Sequence record: PQ529420 | Reading direction: 5' to 3' (one strand) | DNA from: Escherichia phage Eryne | Length of the DNA: 64,000 nt | Shown here: one piece after another, positions 42,004 to 44,160 of the stretch | Layout of the letters: each line of letters opens with the position of its first letter | How positions within the stretch are numbered: the stretch's first letter is position 1 | Notes under the pieces: generated by a model | What the model saw: the letters and a program-made list of their open reading frames with translations, nothing else | The model's database searches: none | What the model was told of the DNA's origin: nothing | Program-made: the position numbers and the translations under genes

Positions 42004-42524
42004 ACAACCTCCTCGTAATTGTTATTGTGTTTTACTGTCTCAACATACAATAAAGATTCCATCTGTAATACATTACCAGAAATAATAAACCCATAAGCCA
42101 TTTCAGATGTGTCTATATCATATGCCCCGTCTTCCGGTTTAGCAAAGTGTAAAACTATTTCATCTGGGTTTTCTTCATCCCATAGTTTAGAAATTTTCCG
42201 AACCAGAATGTTAGCTAAAATAGTTGACATTCGGGATAAAGCTGTATCCTCATATCTTTTAAAACCTAGCCAATAGAGGTTAAGAATTTCTACTTCTTCT
42301 TGTGTTAAGTTTTTGTCTAAAGTAATCAGATCTGTAGAGCACGGCGTTTTTGTTGAACCTACTGTTACAAAACCTGGAGTGTTATGAAAAACAATCTTAA
42401 CTTTATCACGTATAAAGTTTAAACCTTGTGCCTCAACTATATATTGTATTGTAGGTACAATATCGTTTGTTACATCAATAAAGCTATCTTTAATGACGCT
42501 TATATTATTTCTGGACAAGACCAT
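42000..42524 (-). CDS. hypothetical protein
   Basis: ORF track. Confidence 0.5.
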   Translation of the reverse strand: MVLSRNNISVIKDSFIDVTNDIVPTIQYIVEAQGLNFIRDKVKIVFHNTPGFVTVGSTKTPCSTDLITLDKNLTQEEVEILNLYWLGFKRYEDTALSRMSTILANILVRKISKLWDEENPDEIVLHFAKPEDGAYDIDTSEMAYGFIISGNVLQMESLLYVETVKHNNNYEEVV

Positions 42525-43083
42525 TCTCCTCTAAAATAGGTTTAATAAATTCGAAAATTTGTTTTTTACTTTTACCTCGAATATTAAAACAAGGAACATT
42601 AAACTTTTTAGCCAACATCCAAGCTGTTCTTGTACCACCTAAAGGATCTCCATTTTTATCTGTATTTGCACAAGCTAAAAGAAAACAAGATGGTTTTGGA
42701 TTCTCAAGATCTCTGCCAAGAACTTGGTGGATATTTCTTTGATGTAATTTTTTAGCACCTTGAGATAATCTGTCCCAAGCTGGATGCAATTCTTTTGCAT
42801 ATTGCAAGGTTAGAGCATAGTTTACACTATCTGGTCTGTCAAGAACAATAACCTCTCCCTCTATCTCATTACCTTTAAACGAAGGCCAAGGAATGTATAT
42901 TTCTTTCTTTGTATTGTTTCCACTATCATACACCCCGCATTCAAATGCGGAATCTGCACCTTCTGCTTTACCAGATCGTAAAATGAACCATGTAGATAAC
43001 CATTTTGCAACAGCTACCATAGTGTCCCATTCTTCGTCTGTAATATCTCTGCTACCAACACCTGTGTAGAATAAATCGCTCAT
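42505..43083 (-). CDS. SLOG/DprA-like Rossmann-fold protein
   Basis: Start moved to MSDLFYTGVGSRD (RBS AAGGAG); GVGSRD...SGKAEGADSAFE pattern. Confidence 0.5.
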   Translation of the reverse strand: MSDLFYTGVGSRDITDEEWDTMVAVAKWLSTWFILRSGKAEGADSAFECGVYDSGNNTKKEIYIPWPSFKGNEIEGEVIVLDRPDSVNYALTLQYAKELHPAWDRLSQGAKKLHQRNIHQVLGRDLENPKPSCFLLACANTDKNGDPLGGTRTAWMLAKKFNVPCFNIRGKSKKQIFEFIKPILEENGLVQK

Positions 43084-43093
43084 GGTTTTCTCC

Positions 43094-43414
43094 TTAACAA
43101 GTAATATTGGGAATAATACTGGGAGTAACAATTGGAGTAATAGGGTACGTAAACCAAGGGCTTCCAATTTCCCAAGGACTATAAGGTGTACGAGGATCAA
43201 ATGGAGGCGTTACTTGAGGCTTTTTCCAAATCTCCGCTAGTTGTTTCTTCCATTTATCCCTTGCTGTATCGTTATCTTCATCCAACTGTTCGTCATTATC
43301 TTTTATTTCTGATTTTGGAAATAAAAGCTCTTTGACTAACTCAACGTCTTCCGTTTCAATAGTAGTTTCTTTCGTAATATTCCCTACCGTCTCTTTAATT
43401 GTGACTTTATACAT
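43094..43414 (-). CDS. hypothetical protein
   Basis: ORF track. Confidence 0.45.
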   Translation of the reverse strand: MYKVTIKETVGNITKETTIETEDVELVKELLFPKSEIKDNDEQLDEDNDTARDKWKKQLAEIWKKPQVTPPFDPRTPYSPWEIGSPWFTYPITPIVTPSIIPNITC

Positions 43415-44160
43415 TAGTCCTCCTCTAAAGTAGAATAAAATTGTAACGTATTTGAATCATCAAAATATGCAAAGGTTAAATTACCATTGAAGCAAGATCC
43501 TGTATCCATATATACCCTATTACTGCTAATTACAGGTTTAGGAACATAAGAATGCCCGTGAAATACATAATCTACTCCTGAAACTCTAGGAAGAAGAATC
43601 CCTTCAAGGGCGCAATCTATCATATCACGATCCCACATTAAAGATTCTGTGAATCGAGATACTTGCTCTTTATTCATATTCAAACAAAATGGCAAAACTT
43701 CTGTCACTGGTAAATGTTCCAAAACTGAAGGATACCCACCGTGAATAAAGCCTAGTTTCATATCACGATAATTGACAACAAGTACAACAGGTAAATCTTC
43801 TAGCATCAAAGCAAGAGCAGTTGCACCCTCTTCTCCACACTCGTCTAGAACTGTATGGCCTCCGTTCTGAAACCAACATTCGTAATATCGTCTATCACCT
43901 TCTAGCAACCCTTTAATCATCATATCTTCATGATTTCCACGAATACCATAACGATTTAGCTTTCTGGTGAATTCAACAACACAACGAAAATTCTGCTTGC
44001 CGCGATCTGTAAGATCTCCTAAAGATACAACAACATCTTGATCTCGGATACCTAAAGTATTAACACCTTTCTGGTACAAATCAAAGCAACCATGTAAATC
44101 ACCAATAATAAACAGGTCTTGATCATCTTTTACACTAATTTCTTGATATACTAGCATCAA
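43414..44160 (-). CDS. metallophosphoesterase / Ser-Thr protein phosphatase-like
   Basis: GDLHGCFD, GDLTDRG, GNHE motifs. Confidence 0.75.
   Translation of the reverse strand: MMLVYQEISVKDDQDLFIIGDLHGCFDLYQKGVNTLGIRDQDVVVSLGDLTDRGKQNFRCVVEFTRKLNRYGIRGNHEDMMIKGLLEGDRRYYECWFQNGGHTVLDECGEEGATALALMLEDLPVVLVVNYRDMKLGFIHGGYPSVLEHLPVTEVLPFCLNMNKEQVSRFTESLMWDRDMIDCALEGILLPRVSGVDYVFHGHSYVPKPVISSNRVYMDTGSCFNGNLTFAYFDDSNTLQFYSTLEED

Follow-up and report, generated by a model that had tools for sequence, protein, structure and literature searches.

A DprA-type SLOG protein and a lambda-type phosphatase encoded near each other in a phi92-like phage

Two genes found close together in Escherichia phage Eryne (PQ529420), one for a DprA-type SLOG protein and one for a lambda-type metallophosphatase, are, on balance, probably independent accessory genes that are transcribed together, a phosphatase and a nucleotide-binding SLOG protein for NAD+/ADP-ribose counter-defense, and not a dedicated two-gene system. 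The window (the whole 64,000-nucleotide stretch of DNA that was analyzed) is from a phi92-like phage (Justusliebigvirus) with 99.5% identity to vB_Eco_J-01. Both genes are already annotated in public records, as "DprA-like" and "NinI-like Ser/Thr phosphatase," and over 50 phage genomes that are nearly identical carry the annotation; given this and the ordinary synteny of the locus, the gene pair itself carries little weight. What remains of interest is the SLOG family, a common phage gene habitually labeled "DprA-like recombination mediator," a label that is not based on experiment. Confirmation of a counter-defense role would shift this very common gene of phages from recombination to counter-defense. 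Testing is straightforward, since the BASEL collection includes phi92-like phages, which propagate on E. coli K-12.

Locus and transcription unit

The preliminary description had presented the SLOG and phosphatase genes as near neighbors, which they are; they are not directly adjacent, as an ORF of 106 amino acids lies between them. The features of the locus are as follows.

42505 to 43083, minus strand: SLOG protein gene (192 amino acids; phi92 gp047), a DprA-type Rossmannoid domain alone
43094 to 43414, minus strand: intervening ORF (106 amino acids; phi92 gp048), phrog_15301 (E value, 3.5e-54)
43414 to 44157, minus strand: phosphatase gene (247 amino acids; phi92 gp049), a binuclear metallophosphoesterase of the lambda-phosphatase (NinI/PrpA-PrpB) family
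42000 to 42524, minus strand: ORF downstream of the SLOG gene (174 amino acids; phi92 gp046), phrog_8569
44157 to 44483, minus strand: ORF upstream of the phosphatase gene (108 amino acids; phi92 gp050), phrog_15398
41723 to 41742, minus strand: terminator-like hairpin (consensus scan only), the putative 3' end of the unit holding the SLOG and phosphatase genes
41718 to 41690, minus strand: promoter-like site past that hairpin (consensus scan only), role putative
47470 to 47442, minus strand: promoter-like site upstream of gp057 (consensus scan only), role putative
47413 to 47401, minus strand: terminator-like hairpin upstream of gp057 (consensus scan only), role putative

According to the consensus scan, the two genes share a putative operon of about 13 genes with unrelated genes, in the order gp057-MT-gp055-gp054-invertase-gp052-gp051-gp050-phosphatase-gp048-SLOG-gp046-gp045. 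The promoter- and terminator-like elements at 47401 to 47470 are likely the 5' limit of this transcription unit, and both of its limits are those that the scan suggests.

The SLOG gene starts with the ATG at 43083, with AAGGAG 7 nucleotides upstream, and its length of 192 amino acids is that of the phi92 annotation; the phosphatase starts with the ATG at 44157, which gives 247 amino acids. The larger spans in the preliminary description (42505 to 43200 for the SLOG ORF and 43414 to 44160 for the phosphatase ORF) are mechanical ORF limits. Neighboring genes are tightly packed: the gp050 stop overlaps the start of the phosphatase gene, the phosphatase stop and the gp048 start share 1 nucleotide (TAATG), and gp046 overlaps the 3' end of the SLOG gene by 20 nucleotides and, because of this overlap, is probably translationally coupled to it.

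The product of gp048, acidic in its N-terminal half and rich in Pro and Trp in its C-terminal half, has no Pfam match and belongs to a PHROG of no assigned function; its gene is present in 8 of 81 SLOG loci, in phi92 relatives only. The PHROGs of gp046 and gp050 are likewise of unknown function, and a homology search with gp046 found copies in phi92-like phages only (three clusters) and no domain. No ORF of 60 or more amino acids was found on the plus strand of the SLOG-phosphatase stretch, an Rfam scan of positions 38000 to 49000 gave no match, and a tRNA scan of the whole window found none.

Lambda-type phosphatase

The motifs GDLHG, GDLTDRG, and GNHE, on which the gene had been assigned to the PPP-family metallophosphatases, are present in the minus-strand ORF at 43414 to 44160, and the assignment holds. 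Residues 4 to 231 align with residues 3 to 214 of lambda phosphatase (PDB 1G5B; E value, 4e-30), and the protein matches Pfam Metallophos (E value, 4.6e-13) and the "NinI-like" phrog_246 (E value, 7e-76). The catalytic set is complete (D20, H22, D48, R52, N75, H76, H139, and H202); all of these residues, together with D51, line up with 1G5B and show no variation among 12 homologues. The protein has GDxHG, GDxxDRG, GNHE, and two distal His in common with NinI (1G5B) and PrpA/PrpB, but it exceeds the known proteins in length by about 26 residues and has an insert around residues 145 to 170, and its gene lies in a 146-kb virulent myovirus rather than in a lambdoid nin region as that of NinI does. 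Scores of 95 and 83 bits against the NCBIfam equivalog models for PphA/PphB (PRK11439/PRK09968) are far below the cutoffs of 326 and 332, so by the NCBIfam criterion the phosphatase belongs to the family without being an orthologue.

By homology, the phosphatase is predicted to be an active Mn2+/Ni2+ phosphoesterase of the lambda-phosphatase family that would dephosphorylate phosphoproteins, and it may also act on 2',3'-cyclic or terminal phosphates of nucleotides or RNA ends. The preliminary description had set its nucleotide-signaling proposal against the case of a housekeeping phage phosphatase with known protein substrates and no nucleotide activity. Half of that case holds, in that the protein is a clear homologue of lambda phosphatase; the other half does not, because lambda phosphatase hydrolyzes 2',3'-cyclic nucleotides in vitro (PMC2190708), and a lack of nucleotide activity therefore cannot be claimed for its relative. 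PADLOC gave no match for the phosphatase below an E value of 0.05 (the best, at 0.058, was to candidate system PDC-S10), and a literature search for an anti-defense role of NinI-type phosphatases found nothing relevant.

Fold and motifs of the SLOG protein

Both sequences quoted in the preliminary description, TGVGSRD and SGKAEGADSAFE, are encoded on the minus strand within the ORF at 42505 to 43200, and the DprA/Smf-like Rossmann identity drawn from them is borne out by a SLOG fold and both DprA signature motifs. The predicted structure (pLDDT, 97) is a single Rossmannoid domain with the traits of the SLOG superfamily, namely, a three-layer alpha/beta fold, a Gly-rich loop following strand 1, a G-G-x-T type loop following strand 4, and structural likeness to several SLOG clades. 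Its motifs are G10-S11-R12, R36-S-G-x-A-x-G-A-D44, L113-H-Q-R116-N117, and G149-G-T-R-T-A154. Across 71 family members, DprA motif 1 (G-S/T/A-R, in the loop that follows the first Rossmann strand; Wang et al. 2014) shows no variation at G10 and R12 and at least 90% conservation at S11; motif 2 (F/L/Y-x-x-R-N/D, the pocket helix) likewise shows no variation at R116 and N117 and at least 90% conservation at L113.

Profile searches leave the protein short of the Pfam DprA gathering score. The protein has no match to Pfam DprA (PF02481) at an E value of 0.1 or lower, and weak matches occur in 60 of the 71 relatives (best E value, 3.6e-6), the domain score nearest the threshold among those seen being 29.2 bits against a gathering cutoff of 29.6. 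A family profile aligned with E. coli Smf (hhalign and hmmsearch) over the N-terminal 40 residues only, and the other motifs were aligned by eye. With 192 amino acids and one domain, the protein does not have the canonical DprA architecture (SAM and Rossmann fold, with or without a DML1/Z-alpha-like C-terminal domain); DprA proteins with a single domain also occur. YAcAr/YpsA models (PF10686/PF06908 type) matched none of the 71 members, and TM-scores to the YspA/DUF2493 phage proteins in BFVD are about 0.44 to 0.48, versus about 0.8 inside the protein's own family. Isoelectric points (6.8 for the protein, 7.1 for the family median, and 7.3 for the Smf domain) are uninformative. PADLOC gave no match for the SLOG protein, and a literature search found no publication combining phi92 and DprA.

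The SLOG protein is a bare DprA-clade Rossmann domain that retains the pocket formed by the G-S-R loop, the L-x-x-R-N helix, and the G-G-T-x-T-A loop, in which DprA holds a single nucleotide of single-stranded DNA (ssDNA). The DprA motifs that it keeps would suit simple ssDNA binding and recombination mediation just as well. By the database annotation, the protein would be a true recombination mediator of the DprA kind, one that binds ssDNA of the phage and either protects it or loads host RecA or a phage recombinase, a role that we regard as unlikely.

It is unlikely that the protein is instead an enzyme, either a phosphoribohydrolase like LOG or an N-glycosidase, with AMP or an ADP-ribose-derived signal as its substrate. 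Polar residues invariant in the family (D44, H100, H114, Q120, and S132) could mean an unrecognized activity, and the EVADES preprint, as far as its description goes, proposes the same activity for the anti-Avs3 protein ORF83. However, the LOG motif P-G-G-x-G-T-x-x-E is missing, and the equivalent loop, L-G-G-T-R-T-A-W, carries Thr and Ala, neither of them acidic, at the +2 and +3 positions, where LOG has its catalytic Glu. GGGxxGxMG is replaced by the DprA-type S-G-x-A-x-G-x-D, and PF03641 (LOG) matched none of the 71 family members. ORF83, by its published description, carries Asp at +2, where the phage SLOG family has Thr. The SLOG protein, which does not have the LOG catalytic glutamate, would most likely be a noncatalytic binder of a nucleotide moiety.

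Spread, fusions, and neighbors of the SLOG family

The SLOG family (phrog_768) comprises about 6000 clusters at 50% identity and is present in 1513 of 50,697 phage records (about 3%). Among the top 150 family representatives, fusions to NADAR (P0121, P0122, P0137, and P0194) and to DUF4326 (P0198, P0202, and P0216, plus P0074) were found. Pfam scans of 20 long SLOG proteins detected only SLOG-type domains, NADAR (including its phage form, Phage_30_3), and DUF4326; the remaining long proteins have unknown phage domains attached, and phrog_2072, a recurrent C-terminal fusion domain of the family, has no sequence match in Pfam or PDB.

The genes neighboring SLOG genes of the family include those for Macro, NAMPT, PRPP synthetase (Prs), NADAR, DUF4326, and Sir2. 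Of 34 lineages (81 SLOG loci), 12 have PhoH as a neighbor and 9 have a ClpP-like protease, which makes both commoner than any NAD/ADP-ribose gene. The neighborhoods are heterogeneous across lineages, and gene context is weak evidence because early regions of large phages mix many accessory genes. NADAR was found neither in the window nor in the 94 kb examined of phage muut; the window does have a DUF4326 gene at 2258 to 2632, and gp066 of muut is a Macro protein.

Because relatives are fused to NADAR or DUF4326 and have Macro, NAMPT, PRPP-synthetase, and NADAR genes as neighbors, we infer that the ligand of the SLOG protein would be ssDNA or a molecule containing adenine or ADP-ribose and that the family would act in NAD+/ADP-ribose-centered counter-defense rather than in classical RecA loading. 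The nucleotide-signaling and anti-defense context originally suggested for both genes is plausible for the SLOG family; its extension to a coupling with the phosphatase is unsupported. A more elaborate proposal, quite unlikely in our estimate, is that the DprA-type SLOG serves as an ssDNA or ADP-ribosyl-nucleotide recognition module in counter-defense by de-ADP-ribosylation of DNA or nucleotides, one that potentiates or targets NADAR, DUF4326, or Macro, fused or in trans, against DarT-like or NAD+-derived immunity, with the neighboring lambda-type phosphatase of phi92-like phages perhaps trimming products that are phosphorylated ADP-ribose or 2',3'-cyclic phosphates. The AdfN study postulates a "localising factor" for the T4 NADAR, and under this proposal the phage SLOG may be a factor of this kind.

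SLOG genes and phosphatase genes as neighbors

A phosphatase gene lies within 6 kb of the SLOG gene in 18 of the 81 loci, representing 5 of the 34 lineages, and 13 of these loci are syntenic phi92 relatives. In the reverse count, a SLOG gene accompanies 5 of the best 80 phosphatase loci, all phi92-like, and phosphatase homologues of jumbo phages and lambdoids have no SLOG gene nearby. Two-way co-occurrence across unrelated phage lineages, as for a conserved module, was not found, and none of the long family proteins scanned is a SLOG-metallophosphatase fusion. The pairing is lineage synteny and not a module, and neither these counts nor the unrelated genes of the operon support the functional pair proposed in the preliminary description. 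In the unrelated lineages L073 and L044, a phosphatase gene lies within about 1 kb of a SLOG gene; given these, there may be a loose functional link.

A joint module of the two proteins, one that would bind a host immune signaling nucleotide and break it down, is very improbable. In such a module, for example, a cyclic ADP-ribose or oligonucleotide signal would be trapped by the SLOG protein, and the metallophosphatase would either cleave this signal or remove phosphate from a product such as ADPR-1''-phosphate. The confinement of the pairing in both counts, the phosphatase homologues without SLOG, and the lack of both a fusion and a PADLOC match below an E value of 0.05 all argue against such a module, and so does the known phage ADPR-1''-P phosphatase, which belongs to the Macro domains and not to the metallophosphatases. 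The phage "phosphatase" that counters aRES was considered as support for the pair and set aside, as it proved to be a Macro domain.

Comparison with known systems

Relative to Helicobacter pylori DprA (4LJK/4LJR) and E. coli Smf, the phage SLOG is the Rossmann domain only, without SAM or DML1; it has a family-specific insert with an H-P-A-W motif and the invariant His114, and its genes sit in metabolic or counter-defense gene neighborhoods. It is no nearer to ShosA, the DprA-like antitoxin of ShosTA (PDB 8ZVA), than to ordinary DprA: ShosA is host encoded, has 308 amino acids, and has a PRTase toxin as its partner, whereas the phage SLOG is smaller and phage encoded.

ORF83, a phage protein annotated as Smf/DprA, is described in a preprint as an anti-Avs3 factor (bioRxiv 10.1101/2025.06.06.658234) and is not mentioned in AntiDefenseFinder. 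According to the published description, it is, like the present protein, a small phage SLOG fold that has an R-N motif and whose glycine loop holds a conserved Thr, and its homologues, like the present family, include fusions to DUF4326. On the same description, ORF83 is closest to LOG (5WQ3) and has D114, where the phage SLOG has no acidic residue, and its spacing from R89/N90 to T112 is 22 residues, versus 34 in the phage SLOG. A T4-like homologue checked against ORF83 differs in residue numbering.

Phage NADARs strip ADP-ribose from DNA and overcome DarTG1 (PMC11825919), and viral SLOG domains have been predicted to process ADP-ribose derivatives in NAD+/ADP-ribose counter-defense (Iyer, Burroughs and Aravind 2022, PMC9503650). 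That study places most viral SLOGs in a YpsA-like clade, whereas the present family is DprA-like by its motifs. The stand-alone form, the NADAR and DUF4326 fusions, and the Macro and NAD-salvage neighbors described there all match the phage SLOG family, whose own fusions and Macro, NAMPT, and PRPP-synthetase neighbors plausibly fit the counter-defense prediction.

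Gene organization and existing annotation

Over the 5 kb around the two genes, the window shares 99.5% identity with Escherichia phage vB_Eco_J-01 and 98.4 to 99.4% with the other listed phi92-like phages (Justusliebigvirus, Stephanstirmvirinae). The phi92 and muut records label gp047 a "DprA-like DNA recombination-mediator protein," gp048 a hypothetical protein, and gp049 a "NinI-like serine-threonine phosphatase." The public records of this phage genus already carry both genes under these family labels, and the pairing is ordinary synteny. All of the motifs quoted for the two proteins in the preliminary description were found in the window, while the limits it gave were mechanical ORF limits; the genes themselves are as follows.

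42505-43083, minus strand: SLOG gene (gp047 of phi92), 192 aa, with an ATG start preceded by AAGGAG
43094-43414, minus strand: gp048-like ORF, 106 aa, phrog_15301
43414-44157, minus strand: phosphatase gene (gp049 of phi92), 247 aa

The SLOG and phosphatase genes, which had been called near neighbors, are indeed close together but not adjacent, since the 106-aa ORF lies between them. The product of this ORF, found in phi92 relatives only, is very acidic in its N-terminal half and rich in Pro, Trp, and Thr in its C-terminal half (PPFDPRTPYSPWEIGSPWFTYPITPIVTPSIIPNITC).

Every gene from about position 38000 to the window end is on the minus strand, consistent with the negative GC skew, and no plus-strand ORFs of at least 60 aa occur in the gene stretch of the finding. 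Start and stop codons overlap or almost touch throughout gp050-phosphatase-gp048-SLOG-gp046-gp045, and a consensus scan placed the following features at the two ends.

47413-47401: terminator-like hairpin and neighboring promoter-like site
41742-41723: terminator-like hairpin and neighboring promoter-like site

A unit of some 13 genes, delimited by consensus matches only, thus probably includes the SLOG and phosphatase genes along with those for a serine recombinase and a small DNA methyltransferase. No Rfam families were found in 38000-49000 and no tRNAs in the window. The gp051-like gene (44494-45075, minus strand; phrog_4806, labeled "histidyl tRNA synthetase") is interrupted at its 5' end relative to phi92, with in-frame stops in place of the first ~24 codons, leaving a GTG-started ORF of 152 aa versus 190 aa. 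A perfect sigma-70 consensus (TTGACA-18-TATAAT with TG, 12/12; 39551-39522, minus strand) is directly followed by a G+C-rich hairpin and T-run (39506-39486, minus strand) shortly before the gp039-like ORF, an odd arrangement of a promoter and at once a terminator-like hairpin (39551-39486).

A divergent SLOG domain of the DprA clade

The identification of the gp047 product as a SLOG/DprA-like Rossmann protein was upheld by HMM and structure searches and by its DprA motifs. The protein has no Pfam, NCBIfam, or PADLOC match and belongs to the phage SLOG family PHROG 768 (E, 2e-60). An AlphaFold model built from a 71-sequence homologue alignment (pLDDT, 97; pTM, 0.92) retrieved Helicobacter pylori DprA first from the PDB with Foldseek (E, 1e-5), followed by a molybdenum-cofactor carrier protein (MCP), ShosA, YgdH, ThsA, LOG, and YpsA, and on this modeled structure the SLOG fold is therefore secure.

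DprA, MCP, and LOG are not separable by structure alone but are separable by sequence. The DprA domain is defined by two single-stranded DNA (ssDNA)-contacting motifs, G-S/T/A-R and F/L/Y-x-x-R-N/D, and LOG by P-G-G-x-G-T-x-x-E (Wang et al., PMC3950713). The SLOG protein carries both DprA motifs (G10-S11-R12 and L113-H-Q-R116-N117), of which G10, R12, R116, and N117 are invariant in the 71-sequence alignment; its glycine loop, G-G-T-R-T-A-W, resembles the S-G-S-x-x-T-A of DprA, and all five conserved blocks of Escherichia coli Smf are matched in order by eye. Weak PF02481 matches occur in 60 of the 71 family members, none of which matches a YAcAr or LOG model. However, profile matches to PDB DprA sequences are poor (E, 0.07 to 0.2) and confined to the N-terminal 45 residues, and the protein lacks the SAM and DML1 domains found in canonical DprA, so that the sequence points to a divergent stand-alone DprA-clade SLOG domain rather than a DprA orthologue.

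The DprA-type pocket of the protein would most likely hold the base and phosphate of a nucleotide; the candidate ligands are ssDNA, possibly ADP-ribosylated, or an adenine/ADP-ribose nucleotide. Because the catalytic Glu of LOG is missing from its glycine loop, the protein is probably noncatalytic, and the same absence argues against an unrecognized N-glycosidase or phosphoribohydrolase, which we consider improbable.

The phosphatase

Pfam, PHROG, and structural-sequence matches agree on the metallophosphatase identity proposed for the gp049 product. It exceeds the Pfam Metallophos threshold (E, 4.6e-13), belongs to PHROG 246 ("NinI-like"; E, 7e-76), and is matched over its whole length by the sequence of the lambda phosphatase crystal structure 1G5B (E, 4e-30). 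The complete lambda phosphatase catalytic set (D20, H22, D48, D51, R52, N75, H76, H139, and H202) is invariant across 12 aligned homologues from phages, and an active phosphatase is therefore expected; by homology it is a lambda-type binuclear-metal phosphoesterase. Its NCBIfam scores against E. coli PphA and PphB (95 and 83 bits; cutoffs, 326 and 332) mark it as a family member and not an equivalog of either.

The preliminary description had set orthology to housekeeping protein phosphatases, with no nucleotide activity, against a nucleotide role. The homology is clear, but lambda phosphatase accepts bis-pNPP and nucleoside 2',3'-cyclic phosphates as in vitro substrates for hydrolysis (Keppetipola and Shuman 2007, PMC2190708), so by analogy the substrate may be a nucleotide or an RNA end.

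Conservation of the gene pair

The proposal that the two proteins form a module processing or binding signaling nucleotides fared poorly. Of 81 loci (80 from IMG/VR with a SLOG relative, plus phi92), 18 have a phosphatase homologue no more than 6 kb from the SLOG gene, and 13 of these 18 are phi92 relatives sharing many further syntenic genes. After the SLOG proteins were collapsed at 60% identity into 34 lineages, phosphatase was a neighbor in 5, compared with PhoH in 12, a ClpP-like protease in 9, HslV in 6, Macro and PRPP synthetase in 5 each, and NAMPT in 4. Conversely, among the best 80 of at least 571 IMG/VR loci encoding a phosphatase relative, only 5 contain a SLOG gene, all phi92-like; SLOG is absent beside the jumbo-phage phosphatase homologues (36 to 40% identity) and from the many lambdoid NinI loci (~34% identity). 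The adjacency is therefore lineage synteny, which leaves the signaling-nucleotide module very unlikely. A weak link may nonetheless exist, because in two unrelated lineages (loci L073 and L044) the SLOG gene has a shorter phosphatase gene no more than about 1 kb away. In a distant phi92 relative (L048, 3970-6624), the order is phosphatase, DUF4326, three small ORFs, and SLOG, which places a domain fused to SLOG elsewhere between the two genes.

Fusions and neighbors of the SLOG family

At 50% identity, the SLOG family comprises 6041 clusters with an E value of 1e-3 or better and 2126 with 1e-30 or better. It occurs in 1513 of 50,697 phage records, chiefly in large virulent phages of Klebsiella, Pseudomonas, Escherichia, Vibrio, Aeromonas, and Acinetobacter, and its BFVD models have TM scores of ~0.8 among members versus ~0.45 for YspA/DUF2493 phage SLOG domains.

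Among multidomain proteins in the 150 best family representatives, SLOG is fused to NADAR in four (P0137, P0194, P0121, and P0122), to DUF4326 in three (P0198, P0202, and P0216; also in P0074 from the first search), to phrog_2072 in three (P0193, P0196, and P0245; C-terminal ~130 aa, motif VFVFGSNxxGxHGAGAA), and to phrog_9995 in two (P0203 and P0231; N-terminal ~125 aa). Neither the phrog_2072 nor the phrog_9995 domain is matched in Pfam, and P0245 retrieved no PDB sequence. P0121 and P0122 are metagenomic polyvalent proteins of 1475 to 1488 aa with DprA-type SLOG, YAcAr, LDcluster4, and a C-terminal NADAR, and thus hold three different SLOG clades within one polypeptide. In the multidomain proteins examined, Pfam recognized only SLOG-type domains, NADAR (also in its phage form, Phage_30_3), and DUF4326, and thus no partner for recombination or DNA binding. 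A classical DprA-like recombination mediator, the role that the public label implies and with which the two ssDNA-contacting motifs are compatible, is unlikely, and the family is probably mislabeled as a recombination protein.

Macro, NAMPT, and PRPP synthetase are neighbors of SLOG in separate lineages, and phage contigs of ~93 kb have the order Prs-NAMPT-x-Macro-x-SLOG. NADAR is a neighbor in L050 and L061, DUF4326 in L027 and L051, and Sir2 in phi92-like phages. Two genes of these families occur in the window.

38114-38926, minus strand: Sir2-family gene, 270 aa, 3.6 kb downstream of the SLOG gene (Pfam SIR2 E value of 1.3e-22 for the near-identical copy in L002)
2258-2632, minus strand: DUF4326-family ORF, 40 kb from the SLOG gene, sharing 40% identity over 90 aa with the SLOG-fused DUF4326 domain of P0074

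Outside the window, muut gp066 (L164, 29566-30282), although annotated "phosphatase," is a Macro-domain protein with 45% identity to the Macro gene ~0.5 kb from SLOG in the 93-kb contigs (L018-L029); SLOG and Macro genes are therefore both present in phi92-like phages, ~50 kb apart. In the T4-like Klebsiella phage 15882-3-5 (Jiaodavirus; L165, 1479-3034), the SLOG homologue overlaps an RNA ligase gene by 1 nt, its start being the last base of the ligase stop codon, an RNA-repair context unlike that of phi92.

The fusion partners and neighbors favor a role for the SLOG protein in NAD+/ADP-ribose-centered counterdefense. On balance we lean toward a lambda-type phosphoesterase encoded near a nucleotide-binding, noncatalytic SLOG protein that would act in such counterdefense. 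The modest remaining interest rests with the SLOG family, which is very common and probably mislabeled.

Comparison with known systems

Sirtuins of rV5-type phages have been tied to RNA-repair neighborhoods, occasionally with a calcineurin-like phosphoesterase (Iyer et al. 2022, PMC9503650). ORF83, a phage protein annotated Smf/DprA with homologues fused to DUF4326, is among the listed inhibitors of Avs type III (bioRxiv 10.1101/2025.06.06.658234) and may belong to the present family. Phage NADARs strip ADP-ribose off guanine in DNA and defeat DarTG1 (PMC11825919). It has been predicted that viral SLOG domains sense the ADP-ribose derivatives produced by host immunity, or cleave them (Iyer, Burroughs and Aravind, PMC9503650), and the contexts described there are the same as those seen for this SLOG family.
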